Below, piece by piece: positions 1-12,502 of a DNA stretch of 12,502 nucleotides; position 1 is the stretch's first letter; each line of letters opens with the position of its first letter. The position numbers and the translations under genes were made by a program. Below the pieces are notes generated by a model that was not told the DNA's origin, searched no databases, and worked only from the letters and a program-made list of their open reading frames with translations. The DNA is from a virus (Duplodnaviria > Heunggongvirae > Uroviricota > Caudoviricetes), in the IMG/VR virus record IMGVR_UViG_2698536647_000010; one strand, given 5' to 3'.

Positions 1-270
1 TTACTCCCTGACAGGATTTGCAGGCCACTCAATATCAGGTACAGTTGATGTATCAACACGATTCAACAATACCCGATATTTATTCCATGCCTCCAGCAAC
101 GATCTTTCTTCCTCCGTTGCGATTTCCAGATCTACAGCATCCTGCAGTGGCGCAATATACTCACTGAATTCCTGGATGTAGAACTGTGTGGTGACGGTCT
201 TCCAGCCATTCGGCTCTTGCTGTATCGAAGCATACCAGGCTATTTCAATATCGCTATGCTGCGGCAGCAT
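1..270 (-). CDS. Short Tfa-like ORF (89 aa); C-terminal ~55 aa resemble the conserved C-terminus of lambda-type tail fibre assembly protein, N-terminal ~35 aa do not (truncated or chimeric tfa copy)
   Basis: Complete minus-strand ORF from ATG at 268-270 to TAA at 1-3. C-terminal segment [19 protein letters not shown]...[11 protein letters not shown]...DIEWP is shared with the tfa copy at 1049-1483. No convincing Shine-Dalgarno, so expression is uncertain. Confidence 0.45.
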
Positions 271-297
271 TTAACCCCTTGTAATTCATCGCCATAA

Positions 298-326
298 TTG
301 ATTTAATTCACAAATAAAACTATAAC
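298..326 (+). promoter_or_regulatory. Candidate sigma70 promoter (TTGATT - 17 nt - TATAAC) upstream of the methyltransferase cassette
   Basis: -35-like hexamer at 298-303 and -10-like hexamer at 321-326 with a 17-nt spacer, in an AT-rich intergenic region; followed by GGTGA (329-333) and ATG at 339. Sequence pattern only. Confidence 0.3.
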
Positions 327-409
327 ATGGTGAAATCAATGAAAAAAACACAGATGATGGGGCTAAAATTTACACACCACTTACCCTAAAGCTTTATGAC
401 TGGTGGGTT

Positions 410-994
410 TTGGGAGTATCAAATCGGCTTGCATGGGGATGTCCTACAAAGGAACACCTTCTTCCACACTTTCTGGAACATGTAGGTAACAACCATCTGG
501 ATATTGGTGTTGGAACTGGGTTTTACCTTACTCACGTACCTGAGAGTAGTCTGATATCTTTAATGGATTTGAACGAAGCTAGCCTGAACGCGGCATCTAC
601 AAGGGCTGGGGAATCAAAAATTAAACATAAAATTAGCCATGATGTTTTTGAACCTTATCCCGCGGCGTTACATGGTCAATTTGATTCCATTTCCATGTTT
701 TACCTTCTTCACTGCCTGCCTGGAAATATATCTACAAAAAGCTGTGTAATACGCAATGCGGCGCAGGCCTTAACTGACGATGGAACTCTATACGGAGCCA
801 CAATTCTTGGCGATGGAGTTGTGCACAATAGCTTCGGTCAAAAACTGATGCGCATTTACAATCAGAAAGGCATCTTTTCAAACACAAAAGATTCCGAAGA
901 AGGCTTAACACATATACTCTCAGAGCATTTCGAGAATGTTAAAACCAAGGTTCAAGGTACTGTAGTAATGTTTTCCGCTTCAGGGAAAAAATAG
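410..994 (+). CDS. Class I SAM-dependent methyltransferase (Rossmann fold), body of the ORF; true start probably upstream at ATG 339 in another frame (see findings)
   Basis: Translation contains the motif I glycine-rich loop LDIGVGTGFY followed by an acidic residue about 20 aa later (LMDLNEA), typical of SAM-binding methyltransferases. No DPPY/NPPY-type motif was seen, so a DNA amino-methyltransferase is not indicated. The ORF is open from 326 but has no in-frame ATG/GTG before the TTG at 410. Confidence 0.6.
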   Translation: MGVSNRLAWGCPTKEHLLPHFLEHVGNNHLDIGVGTGFYLTHVPESSLISLMDLNEASLNAASTRAGESKIKHKISHDVFEPYPAALHGQFDSISMFYLLHCLPGNISTKSCVIRNAAQALTDDGTLYGATILGDGVVHNSFGQKLMRIYNQKGIFSNTKDSEEGLTHILSEHFENVKTKVQGTVVMFSASGKK

Positions 995-1001
995 CATCCA
1001 A

Positions 1002-1034
1002 CCGCAGCACGTTCTTGCTTAAGACGTGCTGCGG
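1002..1034. terminator. GC-rich hairpin between convergent genes (possible bidirectional terminator)
   Basis: Perfect 11-bp inverted repeat CCGCAGCACGT (1002-1012) and ACGTGCTGCGG (1024-1034) with an 11-nt loop, lying between the methyltransferase stop (994) and the tfa stop (1049). Flanking A/T runs are weak. Confidence 0.35.
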
Positions 1035-1048
1035 CATAATCCCAATGA

Positions 1049-1547
1049 TTACTCCCTGACAGGGTTCGTAGGCCACTCAATATCAGGTGCAGTTGATGTA
1101 TCAACACGGTTCAGCAACACCCGATATTTTTTCCAGGCTTCCAGCAATGAGGTTTCTTCCTCCGTTGCGATCTCCAGATCTACAGCATCCTGAAGTGGCG
1201 CTATATGCTCACTGGCTACCTGCATCAGGCTGTTTTTTGTTTCTTCCGCCTCCCGGATCCGGAACAGTTTTTCTGCTTCCGTATCCTTCACCCAGGCTGT
1301 GCCGTTCCACTTCTGATATTCCCCTTCCGGCGATAACCAGGTGACATTTTCCGGTAACGAGCCAAGTTCAGAAATAAATAACGCGTCGCCGGAAGCCACG
1401 TTCTGGCGGTGCAATATCGGTACTGTTTGCTGGCAGACCTGTATGAGGCGGAATATATGCGTCACCTTCACCAATAAATTCATTAGTTCCGGCCAGCAGA
1501 TTATAAATTTTTATGGTCCGTGGTTGTTCACTCATTCTGAATGCCAT
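1049..1547 (-). pseudogene. tfa: Tail fibre assembly protein (lambda Tfa family), disrupted by an internal deletion/frameshift
   Basis: ATG at 1545-1547 overlaps the stop of the upstream fibre gene (TAATG arrangement). From it, [48 protein letters not shown] matches the recalled lambda/Rac Tfa N-terminus, then the frame stops after 59 codons (TGA 1368-1370). The conserved Tfa C-terminus ([13 protein letters not shown]...APDIEWP) continues in a different frame as the 1049-1483 ORF. About 29 aa of Tfa appear to be missing at the junction. Confidence 0.65.
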
Positions 1548-2566
1548 TATGCAAGCCTCACAATATAGTTAAATGCGATGTTTTTGACGGTGTTTTCCGC
1601 GTTACCAGCAGCGTTAACGGTGATGGTATGTCCATGTGAACCAATCGCAACCGAGTGCGTATGCGCACCAATACCTACAGTATGTGCATGTGCGCCAGAA
1701 CTTGCTGCAGTACCAGACAGCGAGTGGGTATGAGCACCTGCTGACTGTGTCTGAATACGTTGATAATACGATCTACTGGAAGAAGTCCCCGGGCTTACTT
1801 GATACTGTGAATCCTTGACATAAGTGAACCCACCGCCATCATAAAATGCTAACGCAGAACCGCCGCCTCCTGGCCAACGAATACCATTACCATGAGTATG
1901 AGCACCGGCAGACCCCGTAGAGCCACTCAGACTGTGCGTATGCGCCCCGGTGTTATTCGTGGATTTAGTGCCGTAATCAAACGACGATGTGGTTTTCGTC
2001 CCCAAATCCGTACTGGATGCGCTGGCGCTGTGGGTATGCGATTTAATGCCGTCCTGTTCCTGAGACAATACGGCCCGACCACTGGCAGGTTTGCCCTTAA
2101 TCGTCCAGCCACGCATATCAGGGATCACGCCTGACGGATAAGCCGCTGCAAGTTTCGGGTATGCAGATTTGTCAAAAGTCTGCCCCTGCATCAGGGCATA
2201 GCCAGACGGAACGGTATCTGATGGCCACGGGATTGGTGCACCGACTGGATAAAACTCTGCAGGAGGATGAGCCGAGGTGTAAAGCTGCGCCCACGGCGAC
2301 CAGTTTGCGTCGGTCGTATCCCGTCGTGAACGAATAAATGCCGGAGCATGAGCACCGCTTGTACCACTCCAGCCGATGAGTAACTCACCCTCTCCTACTG
2401 CGGTTACACCAGTGAGATGAAGCACATTACCATAGGTTGTTGGGTATCTTGTTGCCCCAGTTTTAGTTTCCAGTTGTCGTAACGTCTCGCGCCCACTCTG
2501 GCGTACGAGTTCAACAACCTGCCCTTTAATTTTTTCCCGCTCTTCTTGTGTAAATGCTTTTGCCAT
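1547..2566 (-). CDS. stf: Side tail fibre protein, C-terminal receptor-binding portion only (339 aa), with its own RBS and ATG
   Basis: Translation carries the His-rich GAHTHS / GAHAHT repeat region and the terminal ...[29 protein letters not shown] characteristic of lambdoid Stf C-termini. ATG at 2564-2566 is preceded by GGAGG. Full-length Stf proteins are roughly 1000 aa or more, so the N-terminal two-thirds are absent. Confidence 0.75.
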
Positions 2567-2581
2567 AAGCGCCTCCGGCAA

Positions 2582-3343
2582 TCACTTTTCCGATACAACA
2601 CGGCGGGAAGAATCAGTAATCTGTCGAACAATATCCCGGTGCTTGTTCAGCTCCCGCAGCGCGGCGCAGACTCGCTCCCACTTCTGAACATCACTTTTCG
2701 CCCTGCGCAGCGCCAGGTTTGCCCTGCGAAGGGACGGAAAAATCAGCTCATCTGCTTGCGTTTCGGTAAACGATGGCAACGGCTGCACAATGTCCGCCAC
2801 AGTTTCTGTTTTAATTTCTTCCTGTGTTGCTGCGTCCCGGACTGGTAACGCAGCACCTGCTGGCTGAGGAAAGGCTTTACCATCCGTTTCCGCTACGGAT
2901 GCAGCTTCCGGCTCTGCCGGTAAATCAGCGCCCGGTATGCAGTAACGAAATTTACCGTCCTGATTAACGCGAATCAGACGACCTTTACTGATTGCCATTG
3001 CCAGCTTTGAAGCCACTTTGCGTGATGTGATGCCGAAAAACGTAGCCAGTTCATCCGCCGTTTGTGATCCGCGTTGTTCAATCGTTGCGGTTAAATCGCA
3101 CTCTGAGATTTTCGCTACTGTTGCTGTGGTGGTTTCTTCCGGCAGTTCTGCCTGCGCTGGCTGTTCCTGCTGAACGTTGTTATCAGCCACACGCCAGGTG
3201 TACGCGCTTTTATCAACGAAACCAGCCTTTTTCAGTTCCCATAGTTCGTTCAGCACTTCTTCACGACTGATATCAAGTCGCGCAGCCAGCTCTACCGACG
3301 TGGCTTTTCCCATCGCTTTCAGTGCGTCAAAAACAGTCTCCAT
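2582..3343 (-). CDS. Hypothetical protein (253 aa) with two winged-helix-like segments; position corresponds to the ren/nin region downstream of the P-like gene
   Basis: ATG at 3343 is preceded by GGGAGG at about 7 nt. Segments [30 protein letters not shown] and [33 protein letters not shown] look like HTH/winged-helix motifs. No family recognised. Confidence 0.55.
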
Positions 3344-3375
3344 AAATTTCCTCCCGGTAAAAATTACTTCTCAAC

Positions 3376-3837
3376 TCAAACAAACCCAGCCGCTTTCCGG
3401 CGCTCATATTCCTGTTTCAGCAGCTCAATTGGCGTTGGCCCCGACGGGCGTTTGGGTGCCGCCAGTTGTCGCCGGACTGGCGGAACGCTCAGGCCGTTAC
3501 TAACATGCTTTGCCCATTTCGTCAGCTGCCGTTCTGCAAGCCGTTTTAATTCCCCTTCGGTCATCTGGCGCTCAATCCCCTTTGAACGCATCTCAAGGCA
3601 AATGTGATACAGCACAGGCTGAGGCCACGGGTACTTATCACTTCCGTCATATCGCCAGGACTCATTGCGCCAGCGGCGGTACTCCTCCATCACAGCATCC
3701 ACCGTCAGACCGAATGGATTGGCTCCGCTTTCCGAAATCAGTGCCACAAACTCAGCCAGGTCCGGAGGCCATGTTTCACCCGCCCGGCAGCGGTCCATGC
3801 ACTGGCGGCAGACCTGTCGGATTTGCTGCTCAGTCAT
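3376..3837 (-). CDS. Replication protein P-like (lambda P family helicase loader), 153 aa
   Basis: Local similarity to recalled lambda P: a YPW-containing segment (DKYPWPQPVLYHI) and TEGELKRLAERQL resembling P's TDAELRRKAADEL. Start taken as the internal ATG at 3835-3837, which overlaps the upstream gene's stop (ATGACTGA), rather than the track's 4041 start that lies inside the preceding gene. No Walker A motif, so not DnaC-type. Confidence 0.55.
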   Translation of the reverse strand: MTEQQIRQVCRQCMDRCRAGETWPPDLAEFVALISESGANPFGLTVDAVMEEYRRWRNESWRYDGSDKYPWPQPVLYHICLEMRSKGIERQMTEGELKRLAERQLTKWAKHVSNGLSVPPVRRQLAAPKRPSGPTPIELLKQEYERRKAAGFV

Positions 3838-4870
3838 CGCGCCAATCTGTGCAATCCAGAGCTTCGAAGGTGCGGCCCCGTTCTTCTGGGTCCAGCGGTT
3901 CGAATAAACCTCCCCCATGAGTTCCCACAGCTTCCAGACCGTTTCCGTCGCTGATAAATCCGTTTTCACGTTCCCACTGCTCACGTGCTGCCCGAATTTC
4001 CTGAACTGCCCGTGATGCGGTGCCACCTGGTGCTGCTGCATGGTTTACCCCCTTGCTGACTGGCTTAACCTGCGCCCTGACGTGATTTACGTGACGGGCG
4101 AATTTCTGCTCCCACTGAACCTGCGTGAAAACTTTCCCCTCCGCTGCCCAGTAGTCCCGGAAAGCGGCAAGTTCAGCAGGTGTAAATTCCGGCTCCGGCA
4201 AAGCCATCCCCCACAACGCAGCCCGTCGTCGAAAATCCGGCGACGGATGCCAGTCATCGACCATCGGAAATTTCCCGATGGGTTCGCTCAGTCCATCCAG
4301 GGATGCAGGTTCTGCTGCCTGCAACGGCGTACCACTCGACTCACTGGTCGGAGCACTCTCGCGCACGTGCGCGTTATGTGTGGGGTTTAATTCTTTATCT
4401 GTATCTTTATCTGTCGTGACTCGTCGTGACATGTCGTGACATATGCGTGACTCGTCGTGACACCCCTCATTCTGTTTTCGTAATTTTTCCCTCTCGCGCT
4501 GCGCTCTCTTGCGCTCTGCCGGGGATTTCGCGGTTTGTGAAACGTTGCCATTGTCCTCTTTCAGTACCTGGCGTTTTTCCCATCCGGTGATTAAATCTCC
4601 ATCAAGTACCCGCCCCTGCATTGCCTGTAAAATTGAATCAATTACTTCTTCCGTCACATCAAGCGCACTTGCTAAATCTTCCGTCGTGACATCAATGTGA
4701 CCACGTAGTGACACGCCGTGACATGTCGTGACATTTCGTGACGCGCTCACCAGAAGGTGGATATACACTGCCATCACTGTTGCAATTGGCTGCCCTGACA
4801 CCCTGGCAATTGTTCGCCACTTAGGGTCATTTGGCATGTCATGCCATAATCTGAGCCAGGCGTTAGCCAT
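3830..4870 (-). CDS. Replication initiator (lambda O-like organiser) with a DnaT-like C-terminal region; contains candidate origin iterons within its coding sequence
   Basis: ATG at 4868-4870 preceded by GAGGTGA. Gene position is after the Cro-like and YdaT-like genes and before the P-like gene. Two clusters of phased GTGAC repeats lie inside the gene, as in lambda where ori sits inside O. C-terminal segment DWHPSPDFRRRAALWGMALPEPEFTPAELAAFRDYW resembles the DnaT/primosomal C-terminal type found on phage replication proteins. Confidence 0.6.
   Translation of the reverse strand: MANAWLRLWHDMPNDPKWRTIARVSGQPIATVMAVYIHLLVSASRNVTTCHGVSLRGHIDVTTEDLASALDVTEEVIDSILQAMQGRVLDGDLITGWEKRQVLKEDNGNVSQTAKSPAERKRAQREREKLRKQNEGCHDESRICHDMSRRVTTDKDTDKELNPTHNAHVRESAPTSESSGTPLQAAEPASLDGLSEPIGKFPMVDDWHPSPDFRRRAALWGMALPEPEFTPAELAAFRDYWAAEGKVFTQVQWEQKFARHVNHVRAQVKPVSKGVNHAAAPGGTASRAVQEIRAAREQWERENGFISDGNGLEAVGTHGGGLFEPLDPEERGRTFEALDCTDWRDD
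4411..4462. repeat. Iteron cluster A: five GTCGTGAC-type repeats phased at 10-11 bp, adjacent to an AT-rich tract
   Basis: GTGAC cores start at 4416, 4426, 4436, 4447 and 4457. Immediately to the left is the AT-rich 4388-4413 with TCTTTATCTG twice (4392-4401, 4404-4413). Confidence 0.6.
4683..4742. repeat. Iteron cluster B: six (C)GTGAC(A) repeats phased at 10-11 bp
   Basis: GTGAC cores start at 4686, 4697, 4708, 4718, 4728 and 4738. Same core as cluster A, about 225 bp away, inside the O-like gene. Confidence 0.6.
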
Positions 4871-4941
4871 ACTCACCTCTTCTGATACCGAATCTTTTTA
4901 CTCACAAATTGCCGGAAGTGATCCGGTATGAATATTGCGAG

Positions 4942-5367
4942 TCAATGCACAGCCACAATATTTCCTGCAGGGCCACCACGATTCATCTGGTTGAAACCAG
5001 CGATCGCCACTGCGACAAAATCATCAGCGTCTCTCACCAGTCGTTCCCGCGTCTCCACCAGCTCCCGAAAATAAGCTGAACTGTGGCTGCGCATTCGGGC
5101 CACCAGCAGAGGCGGCATTGCTTTTTCGATCGCTGGTAACAACGCCTGAATTTTTTTAACCGCATCAGGAGTGTCTTTCTCCACCCAGCGGAAAATTTTC
5201 TGGGTATTGCGAGCCAGGGCTTCCGGATGGCTGTCGTCATATAATTCCGGGAACGTCATACCAAGCTCAAAATAAGCCCGGGTTATTTCAGCTGCCGGAA
5301 CTTTTTCACCGTCCGGATGCGCCCAGGCATTCATCGCCATGCGGATGTGCTCATGCCTGATTTTCAT
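4942..5367 (-). CDS. YdaT-like protein (proposed CII-type early regulator of Rac-type prophages), 141 aa
   Basis: Begins MKIRHEHI..., with size and position directly after the Cro-like gene (17-nt overlap), matching the ydaS-ydaT arrangement as recalled. Family assignment from memory, not searched. Confidence 0.45.
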   Translation of the reverse strand: MKIRHEHIRMAMNAWAHPDGEKVPAAEITRAYFELGMTFPELYDDSHPEALARNTQKIFRWVEKDTPDAVKKIQALLPAIEKAMPPLLVARMRSHSSAYFRELVETRERLVRDADDFVAVAIAGFNQMNRGGPAGNIVAVH

Positions 5368-5626
5368 GAATCAACTCCGATGCATTTGGTGTGTTAGCCT
5401 TGAATCCAACAGGTAAGCCGTCGGTTGGATTCGGGTAAATATCAGGCCGGAGTTCATGAGGTGTAACCTCGAAATTCGTTACTTCAGCAACACGTAATGC
5501 TTTTTCAGGGCTGAATCTTTCATAGCCCCCCAGCACTCGACTTACATGCACCTGAGATAAACCCGTTAGCTTCCCAAACTGTAGCTGGGTGATATGTTTC
5601 TCTTTTAAATAGTCTCTTAAGTTCAT
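5351..5626 (-). CDS. Cro/DicC/YdaS-family small HTH regulator (91 aa)
   Basis: Divergent from the repressor gene. HTH-like segment QLQFGKLTGLSQVHVSRVL and a C-terminal ELRPDIY motif resemble YdaS/DicC-type proteins. Start taken at ATG 5624-5626 (MNLRDYL...) with an AAGG-type SD, rather than the TTG at 5632. Confidence 0.6.
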   Translation of the reverse strand: MNLRDYLKEKHITQLQFGKLTGLSQVHVSRVLGGYERFSPEKALRVAEVTNFEVTPHELRPDIYPNPTDGLPVGFKANTPNASELIHENQA

Positions 5627-5656
5627 AGCCAACCTTCTACGTTATGTCTCGAGCAA

Positions 5657-5685
5657 ATATTAGCCCCGCTAATTTTAAAGATCAA
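5657..5685 (-). promoter_or_regulatory. Candidate early promoter for the Cro-like gene (TTGATC - 17 nt - TAATAT on minus strand) overlapping a 13-bp perfect palindrome (candidate operator)
   Basis: On the minus strand the -35 is at 5680-5685 and the -10 at 5657-5662 with a 17-nt spacer. Palindrome TTAGC-CCC-GCTAA at 5660-5672 lies in the spacer/-10 region. A TGATAATAT extended -10-like element at 5702-5709 faces the repressor gene. Confidence 0.4.
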
Positions 5686-5733
5686 TAGCCAGACTATCTT
5701 TGATAATATTGGTAAAACAAATAAACTCTATGT

Positions 5734-6195
5734 ATGAAAAAAACACGCGAAGTGATTGCAACTCCAGAAGCGAGCAAGAATTTAAAAGCCGCATGGAATG
5801 CAAGAAAAAAAGAGCTGAAGCTGACTCAAGAGCTGGCGGCTGAGTTGTTGGGATTCGAATCTCAAGGCACCGTTAGCCAGTATCTGAACGGCAAGATACC
5901 GGTAAATACCGACGCTGCGCTAAAATTTGCGGCTCTGTTAAAGGTAAAACCAGAGGACATTCGAGAAGACCTTAAAGACTTAATGAATTATGTAAGATCA
6001 TCAGATACTTATGATGATAACTTTTCAGGCAAAGGATGGAGGCTGGTCAATGAAGAACAGGCAGAGTTACTTAACCTCTTCGAGATTCTACCTGCGTCAG
6101 AAAAAGCCAAACTCCTTAACCAGCTACGTGGACTAAACAAGCTCTACGAGGAAGCCTTCGAGAACATGCTGGCACTAAAGAAACGTAACCAGTAG
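5734..6195 (+). CDS. Prophage immunity repressor, DicA/RacR-type XRE-family HTH protein (153 aa)
   Basis: HTH segment LTQELAAELLGFESQGTVSQYLNGK; C-terminal ELLNLFEILPASEKAKLLNQL resembles recalled DicA (ELLELFNALPESEQ). Divergent from the Cro-like gene and followed by the ydfABC-dicF-dicB cluster. No SD before the ATG, so possibly leaderless or weakly translated. Confidence 0.8.
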   Translation: MKKTREVIATPEASKNLKAAWNARKKELKLTQELAAELLGFESQGTVSQYLNGKIPVNTDAALKFAALLKVKPEDIREDLKDLMNYVRSSDTYDDNFSGKGWRLVNEEQAELLNLFEILPASEKAKLLNQLRGLNKLYEEAFENMLALKKRNQ

Positions 6196-6221
6196 CCACC
6201 GCTCACTACCCCATCCACAAC

Positions 6222-6251
6222 AAAAAAACCGACGTCTTAGTCGGTTTTTTT
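6222..6251 (+). terminator. Rho-independent terminator, symmetric and potentially bidirectional
   Basis: AAAAAAA-CCGAC-GTCTTA-GTCGG-TTTTTTT: a short GC stem flanked by A7 and T7 runs, directly after the repressor stop. Confidence 0.65.
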
Positions 6252-6348
6252 GTGCCATAACTTCTGCAAATCAGCTGTATAACTAATATTTTTCCCTTGA
6301 AAAAACATTTACATAGTTACCAAATCAAAAATATCATACGCCATACTA

Positions 6349-6377
6349 TTGACTTAAAATATCCGCGTTACTAATAT
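6349..6377 (+). promoter_or_regulatory. Candidate sigma70 promoter for the ydfABC-dicF-dicB operon (TTGACT - 17 nt - TAATAT)
   Basis: Near-consensus hexamers with a 17-nt spacer about 70 nt upstream of the ydfA-like start; corresponds in position to the dicB operon promoter of Qin. Confidence 0.45.
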
Positions 6378-6448
6378 TTCTATCAAGAACAGCACGGCGC
6401 TGTAGGTTTTAGTTCCGCCACCCGGCGTTAAGGGGAAATGAGGTCAGC

Positions 6449-6604
6449 ATGGATACTATCGAGCTTGGCAACAACGAATCTCTGGTGTACGGCGTGTTTC
6501 CCAACCAGGACGGCACATTCACCGCGATGACGTATACCAAAAGCAAAACGTTTAAAACCGAAAATGGTGCCCGTCGCTGGCTGGAAAGAAACTCAGGTGA
6601 GTGA
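6449..6604 (+). CDS. ydfA: YdfA-like small protein (51 aa)
   Basis: ORF not in the supplied track (below its size cut-off), translated by hand: MDTIELGNNESLVYGVFPNQDGTFTAMTYTKSKTFKTENGARRWLERNSGE. GAGGT lies 4 nt before the ATG. Size and order (51 aa, then 42 aa, then 72 aa after the repressor) match the recalled dicA-ydfA-ydfB-ydfC layout. Confidence 0.65.
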   Translation: MDTIELGNNESLVYGVFPNQDGTFTAMTYTKSKTFKTENGARRWLERNSGE

Positions 6605-6605
6605 T

Positions 6606-6734
6606 ATGGATTTCGACACAATCATGGAAAAGGCTTACGAAGAATACTTCGAAGGCCTTGCCGAAGGCGAAGAAGCTCTCAGCTTCAGTGAGTTTAAACA
6701 GGCGCTTTCCAGCTCGGCAAAATCTAACGGCTGA
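6606..6734 (+). CDS. ydfB: YdfB-like small protein (42 aa)
   Basis: Hand-translated: MDFDTIMEKAYEEYFEGLAEGEEALSFSEFKQALSSSAKSNG. Its start lies 1 nt after the ydfA-like stop, consistent with translational coupling. Confidence 0.6.
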   Translation: MDFDTIMEKAYEEYFEGLAEGEEALSFSEFKQALSSSAKSNG

Positions 6735-6763
6735 TAAGCGAAGCAGCACCGCGAGGAATCAGT

Positions 6764-6982
6764 ATGCAGAAACGAGAACCCGTCATCATCGCGCCAGACT
6801 ATACCGATGATGAACTTTATGAGTGGATGCGCCAGAAAATTAATGCAGCGCAGGATCTGAAATGGGCCAATGAAGCCAGGACTAAGCAGGCTGAAAATCT
6901 GTCCGCTCTGGAGCAGGATATCACCAGGCTGGAAAAAGCAGCGGCATTAAGCATTGCCAGAATGATTACATACCCACGTTAA
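6764..6982 (+). CDS. ydfC: YdfC-like protein (72 aa)
   Basis: 72-aa ORF with GAGG about 7 nt upstream of the ATG. Assigned by size and synteny with ydfA/ydfB and dicF/dicB; the sequence itself was not independently recognised. Confidence 0.55.
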   Translation: MQKREPVIIAPDYTDDELYEWMRQKINAAQDLKWANEARTKQAENLSALEQDITRLEKAAALSIARMITYPR

Positions 6983-7004
6983 TAGCTAACCAACGAGGCT
7001 AATA

Positions 7005-7325
7005 ATGGAATTTAAAGATTTACCAATGCCATTCCAGGAAATGGCAGCGAATGTGGTTCGCTCTCAACTGGCGACTCTTGACCTGAGTACCGTAGAAAAA
7101 GAAACCATCGACAATATATCCGGTAACGTACGCCGAGCCTTTATCGGGCTGTACGAAGAGAAGCAGCTCTCTGATAACCAGGATTTACATGAAAAATACT
7201 TCCTGGATCTAATGGACCTCATTGATAAGGGGTTTGGCTTGTTAATGAAAAAGAAAGGGATTCGAATAGAACCCCTTGAAAATTACTTTGCAACAAAAAG
7301 CATTAATTCTTTTGATTCAAAATAA
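7005..7325 (+). CDS. Hypothetical protein (106 aa), unrecognised; first gene of a convergent pair between ydfC and dicF
   Basis: GAGG lies 6 nt before the ATG and the gene starts 22 nt after the ydfC-like stop, in the operon orientation. Acidic, probably helical protein. No homolog recalled. Confidence 0.55.
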   Translation: MEFKDLPMPFQEMAANVVRSQLATLDLSTVEKETIDNISGNVRRAFIGLYEEKQLSDNQDLHEKYFLDLMDLIDKGFGLLMKKKGIRIEPLENYFATKSINSFDSK

Positions 7326-7578
7326 GAGAATTAATTACAGACTTAACATGCTCTTTCTCATGATTGAAGCTCTCATGATTGAAAGTGCCGGGTTGAAGCG
7401 AGTCGATATAATCAACAAGACTCTGTCGTACGACTTCATTTTTATCCATAACAGATGCAAGAAATGAAATTGCTAAAAGAGTTATATCACTACGCGCCGC
7501 AGCATGTTGCAATGCTTTATCAAAATTATTAATCTGGCGTATCAGGGAGTTAATGATTTCATCATTTTCAGTCGACAT
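7303..7578 (-). CDS. Hypothetical protein (91 aa), unrecognised; antisense to the dicB operon, 3' end overlaps the preceding gene by 23 bp
   Basis: Strong SD AGGAGGG 5 nt before ATG (7576-7578); product MSTENDEIINSLIRQINNF... The longer track ORF (to 7911) has an Arg/Pro-rich, non-protein-like N-terminal extension, so the internal start is preferred. Confidence 0.5.
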   Translation of the reverse strand: MSTENDEIINSLIRQINNFDKALQHAAARSDITLLAISFLASVMDKNEVVRQSLVDYIDSLQPGTFNHESFNHEKEHVKSVINSLILNQKN

Positions 7579-7849
7579 TTCACCCTCCTGAGGGTTGGTG
7601 ATTAAGGAGTTCTCCACGGGTGAGGTGGAGTGCGTGCGCCGGACACGGGTGAGCATCCGGCACTGACAGTTTACTGAAAGGATATTTCCCTGAAAAGTCA
7701 GACCATAACGCGAAAGCGCACGGCGAGGTAGCTGGTTCATAGATAGCCTGTCGTTAAATTTTCGTCGATCGTGCGCTTCCGGTTGTGGCAATCCGCGAAA
7801 TGGCGCGGCGGTAAGTATGGCGGGGTTATTCCTTCCCCGTTGAGGACAC

Positions 7850-7889
7850 CGGGTTGTCAGGTTGACCATACGCTTAAGTGACAACCCCG
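7850..7889 (+). other. Hairpin about 24 nt upstream of DicF (possible processing structure of the DicF precursor)
   Basis: Inverted repeat GGGTTGTCA (7851-7859) and TGACAACCC (7880-7888) with a loop of about 20 nt. Confidence 0.3.
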
Positions 7890-7912
7890 CTGCAACGCCC
7901 TCTGTTATCAAT

Positions 7913-7965
7913 TTTCTGGTGACGTTTGGCGGTATCAGTTTTACTCCGTGACTGCTCTGCCGCCG
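7913..7965 (+). ncRNA. dicF: DicF small RNA (cell-division inhibitor sRNA that targets ftsZ mRNA)
   Basis: TTTCTGGTGACGTTTGGCGGTATCAGTTTTACTCCGTGACTGCTCTGCCGCC followed by a T-run (7966-7970) matches the recalled E. coli DicF sequence almost base for base. It lies about 175 nt upstream of dicB, as in Qin. Confidence 0.85.
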
Positions 7966-8139
7966 TTTTTAAAGTGAATTTTGTGATGCGGTGAATGCGG
8001 CTGAGCGCACGCGGAACAGTTAAAAACAAAAACAGTGTTATGGGTGGATTCTCTGTATCCGACGTTAATTGTTAACTGGTTAACGTCACCTGGAGGCACC
8101 AGGCACTGCATCACAAAATTCATTGTTGAGGACGCGATA

Positions 8140-8328
8140 ATGAAAACGTTATTACCAAACGTTAATACGTCTGAAGGTTGTTTTGAAATTGGTGTCACTA
8201 TCAGTAACCCTGTATTTACTGAAGATGCCATTAACAAGAGAAAACAAGAACGGGAGCTATTAAATAAAATATGCATTGTTTCAATGCTGGCTCGTTTACG
8301 TCTGATGCCAAAAGGATGTGCACAATGA
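8140..8328 (+). CDS. dicB: DicB, cell division inhibitor (MinC-dependent), 62 aa
   Basis: Translation MKTLLPNVNTSEGCFEIGVTISNPVFTEDAINKRKQERELLNKICIVSMLARLRLMPKGCAQ matches recalled DicB. The track ORF starts upstream at 8035 from a non-ATG start; the ATG at 8140 is taken as the true start. Confidence 0.9.
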   Translation: MKTLLPNVNTSEGCFEIGVTISNPVFTEDAINKRKQERELLNKICIVSMLARLRLMPKGCAQ

Positions 8329-8516
8329 ATTCAGCATTTGCGCTTGTTCTGACAGTTTTTCTTGTTTCCGGAGTGCCAGTTGATATTGCAGTCAGTGTTC
8401 ACAGGACAATGCAGGAGTGTATGACTGCAGCAACCGAACAGAAAATTCCCGGTAACTGTTACCCGGTCGATAAAGTTATTCACCAGGATAATATCGAAAT
8501 CCCGGCAGGTCTTTAA
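8325..8516 (+). CDS. ydfD: YdfD, small membrane/lysis-type protein of the dicB operon, 63 aa
   Basis: MNSAFALVLTVFLVSGVPVDIAVSVHRTMQECMTAATEQKIPGNCYPVDKVIHQDNIEIPAGL matches recalled YdfD. The ATG overlaps the dicB stop (ATGA). Confidence 0.85.
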   Translation: MNSAFALVLTVFLVSGVPVDIAVSVHRTMQECMTAATEQKIPGNCYPVDKVIHQDNIEIPAGL

Positions 8517-8609
8517 AACAGTTCCGTAATAAATATCCGGTTTCATTCTTATATGCCAGCAATGGCAGGGATTTGTTCATCCTTAAATCTGTCATGAGGT
8601 TAAAACAAA

Positions 8610-11081
8610 ATGAGTAAAGTCTTTATTTGCGCCGCCATTCCTGACGAACTGGCAACAAGGGAAGAAGGCGCTGTGGCTGTAGCCACAGCCATTGAAGCTG
8701 GCGACGAACGCCGTGCTCGAGCAAAATTTCACTGGCAATTCCTGGAACATTATCCGGCTGCTCAGGACTGCGCTTATAAATTTATTGTCTGCGAGGATAA
8801 ACCAGGCATACCCCGCCCTGCCCTCGATTCATGGGATGCTGAATATATGCAGGAAAACCGCTGGGATGAGGAGTCTGCTTCTTTTGTCCCGGTTGAGACT
8901 GAATCCGATCCGATGAACGTCACTTTTGACAAGCTGGCCCCTGAAGTACAGAACGCTGTCATGGTTAAGTTCGACACATGTGAAAACATCACCGTTGATA
9001 TGGTTATTAGCGCACAGGAATTGTTGCAGGAAGACATGGCAACATTCGACGGACATATCGTTGAAGCGTTGATGAAAATGCCAGAAGTTAACGCCATGTA
9101 TCCGGAGCTTAAGTTGCACGCCATTGGGTGGGTTAAGCATAAATGTATTCCTGGTGCTAAATGGCCCGAAATTCAGGCAGAGATGCGCATCTGGAAAAAA
9201 CGTCGCGAAGGTGAACGCAAGGAAACCGGAAAATACACGTCTGTTGTTGATCTCGCCCGCGCCAGAGCCAATCAACAGTACACTGAAAATTCAACAGGAA
9301 AAATCAGCCCGGTCATTGCTGCCATTCATCGCGAATACAAGCAGACATGGAAAACACTGGATGACGAACTGGCCTACGCTCTCTGGCCTGGTGATGTGGA
9401 TGCCGGAAACATTGACGGCAGCATCCATCGCTGGGCAAAAAATGAAGTTATCGACAACGACCGCGAAGACTGGAAGCGTATCTCGGCATCAATGCGCAAA
9501 CAGCCTGATGCCCTTCGCTACGACCGCCAGACTATTTTTGGCCTTGTCCGTGAACGTCCGATCGACATTCACAAAGACCCTGTGGCACTGAACAAATACA
9601 TTACTGAATACCTGACTACAAAGGGCGTGTTTGAAGATGAAGGAAGAAATCAGAGCGCAACTGATACTCTCTCGTCGCCAGTACCAGAAACTGATGCAGT
9701 GGAAACGGCAATTCCGGGCAACGAAAAAACCGAATGCGAAGTGGAAGACGAACCATCTGTAGAGCGTGAGGGACCGTTCTACTTCCTTTTCACCGATAAG
9801 GACGGCGAAAAATACGGTCGCGCAAACAAACTTTCTGGTCTGGAAAAAGCACTGGCCCTGGGAGCTACGGAAATCACAAAAGAGGAATACTTCGCACGTA
9901 AAAACGGCACGTACTCAGGTTCACAACAAAATACTGGTGCATCTGACACGATCGCACAACCAGAGCCGGTAAAAGTTACCGCTGACGAAGTAAACAAAAT
10001 TATGCAGGCAGCCAATATCAGCCAGCCTGACGCCAATAAGTTGCTTGCTGTATCACGTGGTGAATTTGTTGCAGGGATTAGCGACCCGAATGATCCGAAA
10101 TGGGTGAAGGGGATTGAAACCCGCGATTCAGTGAATCAGAACCAGCAAGAAACGGAACAGAACGGCCAGAAAGCGGAACAAAACAGCCCAAATGCGTTAC
10201 AAAACGAGCCAGAAACGAAACAGCCTGAACCAGTGGCGCAACAGGAAGTGGAAAAAGTCTGCACCGCCTGCGGTCAAAGCGGTGGCGGCAACTGCCCTGA
10301 TTGTGGCGCGGTGATGGGTGACGCAACATACCAGGAAACATTCGATGAAGAGAATCAGGTTGAAGTTCAGGAAAATGATCCGAAGGAAATGGAAGGCGCT
10401 GAACATCCACACAAGGAGAATGCTGGTAGCGCTCAGGATCACGCCAGCGATAGTGAAACTGGCGAGACGGCAGATCCCTTAATTGCGATGAACGGTCATC
10501 ACGTTATCACATCCACCAGCAGAATGTGGCACCACATGATGATCGACCTTGAAACCATGGGAAAAAATCCCGATGCCCCGCTTATCTCAATAGGTGCAAT
10601 ATTTTTCGATCCGCAAACCGGAGATATGGGGCCGGAATTTAGTAAGACCATCGATATGGATACTGCTGGCGGAGTCATTGATCGTGGCACCATTAAATGG
10701 TGGCTTAAGCAATCACGGGAGGCGCAATCTGCCATTCTGACCGATGAAATCCCGTTAGATGATGCACTGCTGCAATTGCGGGAATTTATCGACGAAAACT
10801 CCGGCGAATTTTTTGTTCAGGTCTGGGGAAATGGAGCCAACTTCGACAACACGATTTTGCGCCGTTCATACGAACGGCAGGGGATCCCCTGCCCATGGCG
10901 TTACTACAACGATCGCGATGTACGCACAATCGTTGAGCTGGGGAAAGCCATAGACTTCGATGCCAGAACGGCTATTCCATTCGAAGGTGAGCGCCATAAT
11001 GCACTTGATGACGCCCGTTACCAGGCAAAATACGTTTCAGTTATCTGGCAAAAACTGATCCCGAATCAGGCTGATTTTTAA
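8610..11081 (+). CDS. Large (823 aa) prophage exonuclease-like protein: YdfE-like N-terminal region, central acidic/Gln-rich linker with a CxxC...CxxC zinc ribbon, C-terminal DEDDh (DnaQ-like) 3'-5' exonuclease domain
   Basis: GAGG about 10 nt before the ATG. C-terminal motifs MMIDLETMG (Exo I, D-x-E), GNGANFDNTIL (Exo II) and HNALDDARYQA (Exo III, H-x4-D). Zinc ribbon CTACGQSGGGNCPDCG. The N-terminus MSKVFICAAIPDELATREEG... resembles what I recall of K-12 YdfE, which is a fragment there. Sits in the recombination-gene position between the kil-like genes and xis. Confidence 0.75.
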   Translation: MSKVFICAAIPDELATREEGAVAVATAIEAGDERRARAKFHWQFLEHYPAAQDCAYKFIVCEDKPGIPRPALDSWDAEYMQENRWDEESASFVPVETESDPMNVTFDKLAPEVQNAVMVKFDTCENITVDMVISAQELLQEDMATFDGHIVEALMKMPEVNAMYPELKLHAIGWVKHKCIPGAKWPEIQAEMRIWKKRREGERKETGKYTSVVDLARARANQQYTENSTGKISPVIAAIHREYKQTWKTLDDELAYALWPGDVDAGNIDGSIHRWAKNEVIDNDREDWKRISASMRKQPDALRYDRQTIFGLVRERPIDIHKDPVALNKYITEYLTTKGVFEDEGRNQSATDTLSSPVPETDAVETAIPGNEKTECEVEDEPSVEREGPFYFLFTDKDGEKYGRANKLSGLEKALALGATEITKEEYFARKNGTYSGSQQNTGASDTIAQPEPVKVTADEVNKIMQAANISQPDANKLLAVSRGEFVAGISDPNDPKWVKGIETRDSVNQNQQETEQNGQKAEQNSPNALQNEPETKQPEPVAQQEVEKVCTACGQSGGGNCPDCGAVMGDATYQETFDEENQVEVQENDPKEMEGAEHPHKENAGSAQDHASDSETGETADPLIAMNGHHVITSTSRMWHHMMIDLETMGKNPDAPLISIGAIFFDPQTGDMGPEFSKTIDMDTAGGVIDRGTIKWWLKQSREAQSAILTDEIPLDDALLQLREFIDENSGEFFVQVWGNGANFDNTILRRSYERQGIPCPWRYYNDRDVRTIVELGKAIDFDARTAIPFEGERHNALDDARYQAKYVSVIWQKLIPNQADF

Positions 11082-11145
11082 TGTTCAACCCCGGTCGTTG
11101 CCCACCAGCTATAGTGGCGGCGACCATGATTAGCGAACGACGCTC

Positions 11146-11394
11146 ATGGCAAGACTTATTCTGCTCACTGAGTGGGCAAAAGAGGAATTCAGTGAACCGG
11201 TCCCTACTCCGAGTACGTTAAGTAAATACGCTAAAGCCGGAATGATATTTCCTCTCCCCAAAAAAGTTGGGAGACGCTGGCGAGTGGATCCGCAAGCTCG
11301 CTTTGTCGGAATGGTAAACAAGCCGGAGGTGATCGCCACAGATCACCCTGCTTTGAAGAGGATACTGGAAGATGGCGCGCCCGCGAAAATATAA
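11146..11394 (+). CDS. xis: Excisionase-like protein (82 aa)
   Basis: Small basic ORF immediately upstream of the integrase and overlapping its start by 23 nt (lambda-like xis-int arrangement); RWRVD-type segment. No clear SD. Confidence 0.6.
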   Translation: MARLILLTEWAKEEFSEPVPTPSTLSKYAKAGMIFPLPKKVGRRWRVDPQARFVGMVNKPEVIATDHPALKRILEDGAPAKI

Positions 11395-12502
11395 AACCGA
11401 TGTTCCGGGATTATCTCCGTATTTTGACAAAAGAAATAACAAAGTTTACTGGCGTTACAGGCATCCCATAACAGGCAAAAATCACGGTCTCGGCAGTATT
11501 GACCAGAAACTGGCAGAAACTATTGCAGCAGAAGCGAACAGCCGTCTTGCCCGGCAGCAAATGGAACAAATGCTCAGTCTGCAGGAGAAAATTATTAGTG
11601 ATACCGGCGGTTCATCAACCGTTACCATTTTTCTGAATAATTACAGAAAAATTCAACAGGAAAGATATGAAAACGGCGAGATCAAACTCAACACGCTGAA
11701 ACAGAAAGCGGCCCCTCTCAGGGTATTTGATGAACGTTTTGGCACCAGACCGTTAGATGCCATAACCGTAAAAGATGTGGTATCAGTACTGGAAGAGTAC
11801 AAGGCCAGAGGACATAACAGAATGGGACAAATTTTCAGGAAGGTACTGATCGATGTTTTCCGGGAAGCTCAGCAAACGGGCGATGTCCCGCCAGGCTTTA
11901 ACCCTGCAGAATCGGCAAAAAAACCGCAGGTGCGGATATCAAGACAGCGACTGACTTTTGATGAGTGGATGATGATTTATAACGCAGCGGAAAAGGATGG
12001 TTACTTTTTACAGCGCGGTATGCTGCTGGCACTGATGACAGGCCAGCGCCTTTCAGATATTTGCAAAATGCAATTTTCGGATATCCGGGATGGTTATCTT
12101 CATGTCGAACAGCAAAAAACAGGAACCCGGATTGCCATCCCTCTGGCTCTGCGTTGCGATAAATTAAATCTCACCCTAGATGATGTGGTGTCATCCTGCC
12201 GCGATTGCGTTCTTAGTCCGTGGCTATTGCACCACCATCACGCGAAAGGGACAGCTAAGCGCGGCGGGATGGTTAAGCCAGCAACATTAACCGTTGCATT
12301 TAAAAAAGCCCGGGATTCTGTGGATTACAACTGGCGTGCTAATGGCACCCCACCCTCTTTCCATGAGCAGAGATCTTTATCAGAGCGATTGTTCAGAGAG
12401 CAGGGGGTTGATACCAAAATTTTGCTGGGCCATTCGAATCAAAAAATGACCGATATTTACAACGACGCACGCGGTAAGGAATGGAAAAAACTGGTCATTT
12501 GA
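11372..12502 (+). CDS. int: Tyrosine recombinase / lambda-family phage integrase (376 aa), apparently intact
   Basis: Catalytic signature present: TGQRLSDICKMQFSDI (Arg I), HEQRSL (His-x-x-Arg), LLGHSNQKMTDIY (His and nucleophile Tyr), aligning with lambda Int VVTGQR / HELRSL / LLGH...Y. Ends with a stop at 12500-12502; the att site would lie beyond the window. Confidence 0.9.
   Translation: MARPRKYKTDVPGLSPYFDKRNNKVYWRYRHPITGKNHGLGSIDQKLAETIAAEANSRLARQQMEQMLSLQEKIISDTGGSSTVTIFLNNYRKIQQERYENGEIKLNTLKQKAAPLRVFDERFGTRPLDAITVKDVVSVLEEYKARGHNRMGQIFRKVLIDVFREAQQTGDVPPGFNPAESAKKPQVRISRQRLTFDEWMMIYNAAEKDGYFLQRGMLLALMTGQRLSDICKMQFSDIRDGYLHVEQQKTGTRIAIPLALRCDKLNLTLDDVVSSCRDCVLSPWLLHHHHAKGTAKRGGMVKPATLTVAFKKARDSVDYNWRANGTPPSFHEQRSLSERLFREQGVDTKILLGHSNQKMTDIYNDARGKEWKKLVI

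Follow-up and report, generated by a model that had tools for sequence, protein, structure and literature searches.

Direct repeats of the Tfa C-terminal domain flank a broken ybcY gene in a decayed E. coli-type prophage

Comparison with described prophages and phages

Invertible fibre segments, such as Mu G, P1 C and e14 P, carry two chaperone genes. The arrangement closest to the one described here is annotated in the DLP12 prophage of E. coli K-12, where tfaD, ybcY and tfaX (NC_000913.3, 581.5-583.1 kb) are followed by appY and ompT. Another lambdoid prophage, integrated at ompW in UTI89, APEC O1, O104:H4 and ST648 strains, has the order stf - tfa - ybcY - tfa remnant - DUF4376 remnant - ompW'. 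As for recombination at such loci, De Paepe et al. 2014 (PMC3945230) found experimentally that lambda recombines with both Rac and Qin in stf-tfa DNA that is 88-96% identical. A passage of PMC9608196 citing North et al. 2019 describes Tfa as a variable N-terminal fibre-binding domain with a conserved C-terminal trimerisation domain.

We analysed a 12,502-nt stretch of viral DNA (the window; IMG/VR record IMGVR_UViG_2698536647_000010), in which tfa on the minus strand, ybcY on the plus strand and tfaX on the minus strand form a DLP12-type arrangement (Table 1). The genes, their order and their orientation are those of K-12 DLP12, which is 96.6% identical over window positions 24-1401 (1,378 nt), while the ompW-site prophage is 98.4% identical over 1-1401. 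The early region of the window also matches prophages integrated at ompW. In K-12, ybcY is likewise a pseudogene damaged at the same A-run. However, in K-12 tfaX ends about 23 nt short of the usual tfa stop and directly adjoins appY, whereas tfaX in the window has retained an entire tfa 3' end, like that of the ompW-site prophages, and K-12 tfaD is intact where tfa in the window has an 86-nt deletion. In the ompW-site prophages of UTI89, APEC O1, O104:H4 and ST648, ybcY (A8), tfa and stf are intact; in the window all three are broken and the late genes are lost.

Table 1. Features at the fibre-locus end of the window
Feature	Position	Strand	Description and basis
tfaX ORF, 89 aa	1..270	-	Caudo_TAP and PHROG 2341 matches; SD-like AAGGGG 4 nt upstream of ATG
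Distal repeat copy	1..177	-	last 58 codons and stop of the tfaX remnant; Caudo_TAP profile 75-130
Sigma-70 promoter-like hexamers	298..326	+	TTGATT (298-303), 17-nt spacer, TATAAC (321-326); upstream of ybcY
ybcY, class I SAM-dependent methyltransferase, pseudogene	327..994	+	Pfam; frameshift compared with intact copies
Hairpin, 14-bp stem	1002..1034		between convergent ybcY and tfa; fold prediction
Proximal repeat copy	1049..1225	-	C-terminal domain codons of full tfa; repeat search, alignment, Caudo_TAP
tfa (tail fibre assembly chaperone), pseudogene	1049..1547	-	86-nt deletion; ORFs and alignment to relatives
Fusion ORF of DUF977 N-terminus and Stf C-terminus (Collar domain, fibre repeats)	1547..2581	-	Pfam, alignment to relatives

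Compared with all relatives, tfa in the window lacks 86 nt between 1401 and 1402, so that the gene is broken into two ORFs, 1049-1483 and 1368-1547. The former matches Caudo_TAP with 147.5 bits over profile positions 12-130 (cut-off 22.1). This proximal tfa follows stf but, being frameshifted by the deletion, does not encode a full-length Tfa. The sequence-only reading of this DNA had missed that the methyltransferase gene and the full tfa are both pseudogenes here. The DUF977-Stf fusion ORF has its junction near 2454-2455, the mark of a large internal prophage deletion that truncated stf, and the prophage in the window is without late genes. These results indicated that the window is a decayed E. 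coli-type prophage with ybcY, tfa and stf all broken, and that its cassette is dead or inert.

Elsewhere the arrangement is common: 3,670 of 5,426 E. coli genomes (about 68% of complete genomes) hold ybcY together with tfaX, and many lambdoid phages also carry tfa-ybcY-tfaX. Following a suggestion of the sequence-only reading, the methyltransferase gene was sought in other contexts and was found in several. It lies beside appY-ompT in K-12 DLP12, near a hydrolase gene and ompT in phages PhiR26_1 and 2G7b (the latter with a different fibre module), and separated from tfa by pin-ynaE in PhiR68_2, and a homologue occurs on Enterobacter chromosomes without any tfa. These Enterobacter homologues adjoin prlC, a neighbourhood that gives no functional clue. 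The tfa-ybcY-tfaX arrangement is already known, real, recombination-prone and ordinary; it raises no new question, because it is annotated in K-12 and recombination across diverged stf-tfa DNA has already been measured experimentally.

The repeat pair and its possible origins

A repeat search assigned window positions 1-177 and 1049-1225 to one two-copy direct repeat family, 177 nt long and ungapped, and local alignment gave identical limits. Such a pair had been proposed by eye at 1-168 and 1050-1217 with about 90 percent identity; the repeat was confirmed, its proposed limits were one base off at the start and about nine short at the end, and the computed identity was 88% (156 of 177 positions, 21 mismatches). 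The longest perfect blocks between the copies are 20, 19, 19, 19 and 15 nt, of which even the 20-nt block is short for RecA-type exchange and speaks against it. Over 30-93 bases past the repeat edge the copies are 28-33% identical, which is the random level, so the inner boundary is sharp and similarity is random from base 178. The equivalent pair in relatives gave BLAST E-values of about 1e-57 to 1e-63, so the similarity is not due to chance. Both copies match Pfam Caudo_TAP (PF02413) on the minus strand, in line with the claim that each encodes the C-terminus of Tfa, and the Pfam matches and the hairpin fold agree that the copies flank a plus-strand methyltransferase gene and a hairpin.

Two unrelated genes could in principle look this similar simply because their proteins share a conserved Tfa C-terminal domain, and the similarity would then have no meaning for recombination. 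The repeat does coincide with a conserved protein domain, and the dN/dS of 0.2 between the copies (18 codons differ, 10 of them synonymously; dS 0.37, dN 0.07) fits such conservation. However, the DNA identity is 88% with a dS of only 0.37, the inner boundary is abrupt, and in relatives that include UTI89 and E. albertii the repeat extends 49 nt beyond the stop codon into the non-coding hairpin, with 89% identity over 227 nt, which contradicts this explanation, as do the natural cassette-free alleles with junctions inside the repeat that are described below. We consider it extremely improbable. The similarity is not the short patch from protein conservation alone that the sequence-only reading had set against its own proposal, given the 177-nt match and the non-coding extension in relatives. 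By their dS, dN and dN/dS values, the copies are diverged alleles rather than a fresh duplication.

It might also be supposed that ybcY, a low-GC cargo gene flanked by direct repeats, is a mobile cassette whose insertion duplicated its target. But repeats of 177-227 nt that are 12% diverged are unlike a target-site duplication and contradict this idea, no transposase or integrase lies within the cassette, and the boundaries differ between contexts; we give such an origin practically no chance.

The two tfa copies could further be the relic of a Pin/Gin-type invertible segment with alternative fibre-tip and chaperone genes. The window shares with Mu G, P1 C and e14 P two chaperone-gene copies at the end of the fibre locus, and some relatives, namely PhiR68_2 and phage Kati, have a PinQ/PinR-type serine recombinase between tfa and ybcY-tfaX. 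In the window, however, the copies are direct and not inverted, tfaX has no partner fibre-tip gene, and there is neither an alternative fibre tip nor an invertase; none is annotated in the equivalent SCU-125 prophage either. Where phages carry pin, the pin-ynaE block stands in place of window positions 1035-1070 and is a separate insertion beside the hairpin. The window is not a Pin/Gin invertible tail-fibre segment, and descent from one is very unlikely.

Cassette-free alleles and probable exchange between the repeats

The empty site was queried with a synthetic deletion product made of the distal flank, the repeat and tfa. It gave a single 827-nt match at 97.9-100% identity in at least six E. 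coli genomes without ybcY and tfaX, all at one chromosomal prophage site (trp-yciEFG-ompW'-DUF4376'-tfa-stf-lom-J), so the empty site that the sequence-only reading had suggested looking for exists at ompW. About 375 further E. coli genomes carry the 1,049-nt cassette in the ompW-site prophage. The cassette-free junction lies inside the repeat, which there spans 227 nt with the hairpin included, and each cassette-free allele joins the distal hairpin and flank to proximal-type tfa from +61 onward. Over 2,801 nt of tfa/stf, only 1 base separates cassette-free NMBU-W13E19 from cassette-bearing ST648, and only 4 bases separate cassette-free EFF60 from it. Two distal-copy-specific bases (+82 and +88) occur within the proximal-type tfa of NMBU, and distal-type bases are found at +16 to +21 in the proximal copies of ST648 and O104:H4; such patches, of 1-4 sites each, could be shared polymorphism.

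Of 79 phage contigs, 27 have a full-length proximal copy, another 27 have a stump of 98, 121 or 146 nt, and 20 have only the hairpin. The distal copy stops at -71, +23/24 or +46 or runs on into the flank. Several discrete ends are what is expected of a recombination junction zone. Together with the cassette-free junctions inside the repeat, they support the proposal that recombination takes place at conserved tfa 3' sequences.

For the K-12 (appY) and PhiR26_1 (hydrolase) contexts, the deletion products had no single-piece match among the best-ranked records, with 0 records at 80% or more for PhiR26_1. Phage ev099 has a single tfa but was rejected as an empty site, its downstream flank sharing no DNA with any ybcY context. 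A synthetic tandem-duplication junction returned only ordinary two-piece matches and no duplication allele. Of the earlier claim that the cassette could be excised or duplicated, the excision part thus has natural cassette-free alleles on its side, with the direction being either loss or gain, and the tandem duplication was not borne out. Each cassette-free allele is either a loss or the ancestral state: the six junctions all fall in one distal zone, a never-occupied site would look alike, and gain of the cassette through allelic replacement by a different prophage would be no harder than its loss through intramolecular exchange.

We consider it likely that the locus is the edge of a fibre module with a leftover tfaX, and that the Tfa C-terminal repeats serve as recombination substrates through which ybcY-tfaX is gained or lost. 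The region is probably where a lambdoid side-tail-fibre module ends on its right-hand side, with stf, tfa, the hairpin, a convergent ybcY under its own promoter, and tfaX, which is what remains of the 3' end of a different tfa allele. The repeat is exactly the conserved C-terminal (trimerisation) domain, common to otherwise different tfa alleles, and so offers homologous DNA where fibre modules end on their 3' side. As to how ybcY first came between two tfa ends, we infer that a past phage-phage recombination put a complete stf-tfa-hairpin unit beside ybcY while the older tfa end stayed behind, and this arrival would have created two diverged direct repeats. The natural alleles showed that the repeats continue to serve as substrates for recombination: exchange where they are most alike, in the hairpin and roughly the first 60 nt of tfa, removes or adds the 1,049-nt ybcY-tfaX cassette, and short stretches of one copy turn up in the other.

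Fibre and chaperone modules are likewise exchanged at conserved flanks in the mosaic tail-fibre loci of lambdoid, P2 and Mu-type phages and in relaxed homologous recombination between phages and defective prophages (De Paepe et al. 2014). In contrast, the partners in the window are two copies within one prophage, and the outcome is therefore loss or gain of a cargo gene, not a host-range swap. The locus is a natural example of how the conserved Tfa C-terminal domain provides an anchor of homology where host-range modules end; recombination there leaves chaperone-gene stumps and makes the adjacent cargo gene both gainable and losable. In prophage annotation, a 'tail fiber assembly protein, partial' beside ybcY would be a recombination scar and not a gene, and the same anchor is relevant to the engineering of lambdoid fibre swaps.

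ybcY, the hairpin and tfaX

The ybcY product matched Methyltransf_12 (38 bits), _23, _25 and _11, all above the Pfam cut-offs, and is a class I SAM methyltransferase. Its gene carries a -1 frameshift in the A-run at 342-348 (A7 in the window, A8 in intact copies), which leaves 410-994 as the longest ORF. The true start is likely ATG 339, because PHROG 2132, the family of unknown function to which ybcY belongs, aligns from residue 5 and the Enterobacter homologue starts MKKQTDEG. Pfam, NCBIfam and PDB gave generic methyltransferase matches only, with no NCBIfam equivalog. Weak structure matches to UbiG and juvenile-hormone acid methyltransferase (E about 1e-3) were seen, and the nearest matches are small-molecule O-methyltransferases. 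A role as phage DNA methyltransferase was rejected, there being no DNA methylase family among the Pfam, NCBIfam, PDB and PADLOC matches, and defence-system models had no meaningful match to YbcY or TfaX. The A-run was also dismissed as a phase-variable homopolymer switch: tract length hardly varies in IMG/VR, where an exact-pattern scan found A8 in at least 120 contigs, A7 in 1 and A9 in 0.

The hexamers reported for the K-12 ybcY promoter are identical to those in the window; this promoter is described as constitutive and its spacer is flagged as H-NS-bound (PMC3946193). The GC content of ybcY is 38-45%, against 50-57% for tfa/stf, and ybcY lies on the strand opposite to theirs. Judged by its own promoter hexamers, opposite strand, 3' hairpin, deviant GC and the existence of cassette-free prophages, ybcY has the features of a phage cargo gene (moron).

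The hairpin at its 3' end folds with -23.9 kcal/mol (z = -5.1) and is terminator-like, yet without an adjacent U-run, and no canonical intrinsic terminator was called there. In UTI89 and other relatives, a diverged second hairpin copy lies past tfaX, at a position that falls outside the window.

TfaX matched Caudo_TAP with 86.9 bits, only over profile positions 75-130 (cut-off 22.1). Its first 30 aa are unlike any full-length Tfa and the remainder is the Tfa C-terminal domain; a search for a full-length Tfa sharing those 30 aa gave 615 matches, and all those inspected were short remnants or read-through artefacts. Having neither an N-terminal Tfa domain nor an stf, tfaX does not encode a full-length Tfa. 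The distal copy is a composite: upward of about +46 it is PhiR26-type tfaX, whereas below that point it has the end of an ordinary tfa together with the hairpin.

The repeat might instead exist because tfaX is a maintained small gene, a Tfa of the C-terminal domain only, so that both genes need this domain. The 89-aa ORF is intact, with an ATG and an SD-like AAGGGG; near-identical 88-89-aa proteins form large, very widespread clusters with a PHROG family of their own (2341); and K-12 annotation has a 'protein TfaX', with a promoter listed on the tfaX side of the spacer. Against maintenance, tfaX loses its 3' end at +23/24 or +46 where it lies beside appY or the hydrolase gene, with unrelated sequence in its place, TfaX has 61 aa in K-12 and 101 aa with a different tail in PhiR26_1, and tfaX is lost together with ybcY in the cassette-free prophages. 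From these comparisons a maintained tfaX seems unlikely. It is highly improbable that TfaX, expressed by a resident prophage as an 89-aa protein that is hardly more than the conserved Tfa trimerisation domain, poisons side-tail-fibre assembly by co-assembling with Tfa from a superinfecting lambdoid phage, or otherwise acts jointly with YbcY; in that case the repeat would persist through selection and would not be a fossil.

The tfa repeat and the genes between its copies

A repeat search of the window returned one long two-copy family, at 1-177 (distal copy, at the tfaX end) and 1049-1225 (proximal copy, at the tfa end), in which 177 nt aligned without gaps at 88% identity; local alignment gave the same limits. 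The sequence-only reading had placed about 90% identical repeats at 1 to ~168 and 1050 to ~1217 and assigned both to the minus-strand C-terminus of Tfa, and both statements were borne out, with each copy matching Caudo_TAP (Pfam) on the minus strand. The copies differed by 21 mismatches, the longest perfect blocks being 20, 19, 19, 19, and 15 nt. Past the repeat, the adjoining 30-93 bases agreed at a random level only (28-33%), making the inner edge abrupt. In a passage of PMC9608196 citing North et al. 2019, Tfa is described as modular: its N-terminal domain is variable and binds the cognate fibre, and its helical C-terminal domain is conserved and drives trimerisation. The 59-codon repeat is this conserved C-terminal domain, whose boundary is the edge at base 177/178. 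The copies differed in 18 of 59 codons, 10 of them synonymously (dS 0.37, dN 0.07, dN/dS 0.2); they are diverged alleles of one domain and no recent duplication. A target-site duplication, which would also leave direct repeats, fails on both the length and the divergence of the repeat.

Features of the window
Feature	Position	Strand	Remarks
tfaX ORF	1-270	minus	89 aa; Caudo_TAP profile positions 75-130 only
Hairpin	1002-1034		14-bp stem; -23.9 kcal/mol, z = -5.1
tfa ORF	1049-1483	minus	Caudo_TAP profile positions 12-130
Fusion ORF	1547-2581		first ~46 residues of DUF977 protein + side tail fibre C-terminal part
DUF1627 gene			between P-like gene and fusion ORF in right-to-left listing
P-like gene			leftward of DnaT-like/O-like gene in right-to-left listing
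DnaT-like/O-like replication gene	3830-4876	minus	with 10-nt iterons
RecE-like exonuclease	8610-11081		823 aa
Integrase	11372-12502

The plus-strand methyltransferase and hairpin said to be bracketed by the repeats were likewise confirmed, the former as a class I SAM methyltransferase (Methyltransf_12/23/25/11 matches) named YbcY in phage annotations, the latter folding between the convergent stop codons 992-994 and 1049-1051. A simple terminator scan made no call for the hairpin, because its stem has no directly adjoining U-run. The feature is the tfa-ybcY-tfaX arrangement, which is annotated already: the K-12 MG1655 DLP12 cryptic prophage has a segment that reads tfaD - ybcY (pseudogene) - tfaX - appY - ompT and is 96.6% identical to window 24-1401. 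The arrangement also occurs in many sequenced lambdoid phages. A ybcY + tfaX query was covered at least 80% in 3,670 of 5,426 complete E. coli genomes, and at least 80% of window 1-2600 was present in 651 genomes. In UTI89 and its relatives, with the prophage at ompW, the repeat extends beyond what the window covers (227 nt, 89% identity), because a diverged second hairpin copy lies past tfaX.

Cassette-free alleles at ompW

Complete E. coli genomes were searched with a synthetic deletion product consisting of 300 nt of distal flank, the repeat, and 300 nt of tfa-specific sequence. The results showed a single 827-nt piece in 3 records (98.4-99.0%), and when one found allele served as the query, at least 6 single-piece records appeared among 381 genomes with the ompW context, so that the empty site sought after the sequence-only reading does exist there. 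The other matches listed for this context spanned 1,876 nt, i.e. with the 1,049-nt ybcY-tfaX cassette, and the same synthetic-product search gave no deletion product among the matches listed for the appY (K-12) and hydrolase (PhiR26_1) contexts. The cassette had been proposed to be excisable or duplicable: excision agrees with cassette-free alleles whose junction lies in the repeat, while a synthetic query for the tandem-duplication junction found none in complete E. coli genomes. All six cassette-free alleles shared the neighbourhood trp-yciEFG-ompW'-DUF4376 remnant-tfa-stf-lom-J. In the one of E. coli NMBU-W13E19 (4108-4937 of its locus), ompW' and the DUF4376 remnant were separated by an insertion comprising an ash-family gene and a Rha-family regulator.

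The junctions were compared at 31 sites variable among the copies, numbered from the tfa 3' end. Every cassette-free allele joined a distal-type hairpin and flank to proximal-type tfa from +61 onward, placing the switch within the hairpin-to-+60 zone. This is where the copies are most alike, with a 35-nt perfect block across the stop codon; in O104:H4-type prophages they differ there at one site only (+41). That the junctions of natural alleles fall inside the repeat, that in relatives it reaches into non-coding DNA, and that dS between the copies is low all contradict protein conservation alone as its explanation, which fails. The six alleles represented five haplotypes. In the 2,801 nt of tfa/stf that lie upstream of the repeat, cassette-free NMBU-W13E19 differed from cassette-bearing ST648 by 1 base and cassette-free EFF60 by 4 bases, yet within the repeat both differed from it at several sites. 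NMBU carried two distal-copy-specific bases (+82, +88) amid proximal-type sequence. At +16 to +21 the ST648 and O104:H4 proximal copies were of distal type, which the window, UTI89, K-12, and PhiR26_1 are not. These base patterns fit crossing-over with short conversion tracts between copies, although the patches are small. Cassette loss would be simpler than gain, because ~98% of alleles are cassette-bearing; an intramolecular exchange could remove the cassette, but replacement of the allele by that of another prophage could just as readily add it. As population evidence that the cassette is gained or lost at the repeats, these alleles usefully confirm the reading and are no surprise.

Cassette edges in other phages and the probable origin of the cargo

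We aligned 79 ybcY-carrying IMG/VR contigs with UTI89 as reference. The tfa side of ybcY held full tfa in 27, a stump of 98, 121 or 146 nt without a usable reading frame in 27, and the hairpin only in 20; on the tfaX side homology stopped at -71, +23/24 or +46, or continued into ompW-type flank. Phage 2G7b had another fibre/chaperone module followed by 120 nt of tfa end, hairpin, ybcY, and tfaX, and PhiR68_2 had a pin-ynaE block inserted next to the hairpin. Some relatives carry pin at the same spot, as would be expected if the two tfa copies were the relic of a Pin/Gin invertible segment, but this explanation fails on the wrong orientation of the repeats and the lack of both an invertase and a partner fibre tip. 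The several junction classes on both sides indicated that each cassette edge has been formed more than once by joining inside the final ~180 nt of tfa. Such joining agrees with the mosaicism long recognised in fibre modules, and with measurements in which lambda recombined with Rac and Qin across 88-96% identical stf-tfa DNA (PMC3945230). Together with the cassette-free alleles, these discrete junctions support the earlier claim of recombination at conserved tfa 3' sequences, and the methyltransferase did turn up in other contexts: at appY in K-12, with the other fibre module of 2G7b, beside pin-ynaE in PhiR68_2, and with no tfa nearby on Enterobacter chromosomes. A further junction class was observed in three loci from E. 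coli ECMA0423 and Shigella flexneri (L012, L014, L015; ~3697-4709), where homology ends just past the hairpin without tfa beyond, and tfaX shares 94% identity with the window's proximal copy (88% for the window's own tfaX).

YbcY (PHROG 2132) weakly resembles small-molecule O-methyltransferases, and no similarity to DNA methylases or defence proteins was found. Its homologues on Enterobacter chromosomes (L019-L022, match at 4001-4654; 61-64% aa identity) are convergent with prlC (peptidase M3), have no tail-fibre genes or tfa within 4 kb, and start at a codon aligning with window ATG 339, not ATG 327. These homologues suggest that phage ybcY was captured from an enterobacterial chromosome and is carried as cargo. 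GC content is 38-45% in the cassette vs 50-57% in tfa and stf. For the ybcY/tfaX spacer, genomic SELEX listed a constitutive sigma-70 ybcY promoter (TTGATT-17-TATAAC) and flagged H-NS (PMC3946193); the promoter hexamers are present at window 298-303 and 321-326.

A selected, expressed gene is a less likely reading of tfaX (PHROG 2341). For it speak the intact ORF, whose ATG is preceded at a distance of 4 nt by an SD-like AAGGGG (window 271-290, minus strand), and the fact that TfaX constitutes a protein family of its own; against it, the truncation of tfaX varies among other contexts. Among the matches inspected in the protein collection, no full-length Tfa shared the first 30 residues of TfaX. 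Its first ~35 also hit phrog_3893, a different small phage family, and bases 178-270 may therefore derive from another small phage gene. The window's distal copy is a composite of PhiR26-type tfaX above ~+46 and, lower down, the end of an ordinary tfa.

Decay of the window's prophage

The window represents a lambdoid prophage that has decayed. Its ybcY has A7 at 342-348 instead of the A8 of intact copies and thereby loses frame after 7 codons. Exact-pattern scans of IMG/VR contigs found A8 in at least 120, A7 in 1, and A9 in 0; the A7 is a rare inactivating slip at a mutational weak point, and a phase switch at the tract was rejected on these counts. In K-12, too, ybcY carries damage at this homopolymer, but of another kind. 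Every relative examined has 86 nt of tfa that are missing from the window between 1401 and 1402; the window's gene is therefore frameshifted into overlapping ORFs 1049-1483 and 1368-1547. Window 2456-12502 and 1-2453 matched relatives as separate blocks, which in strain SCU-125 fall in two tandem prophages at ompW. The separate matches mean that the whole stretch from the DUF977 gene to the stf end was lost, and with this internal deletion went the genes for nin, lysis, head, and tail functions. The prophage is dead, with the three relevant genes all inactivated.

The DUF977-Stf fusion ORF is in frame, with its junction near 2454-2455. Six 10-nt iterons (consensus GTCGTGACAT) lie in clusters of three at 4403-4452 and 4695-4744 inside the DnaT-like/O-like gene, the lambdoid layout with the origin within the initiator gene.
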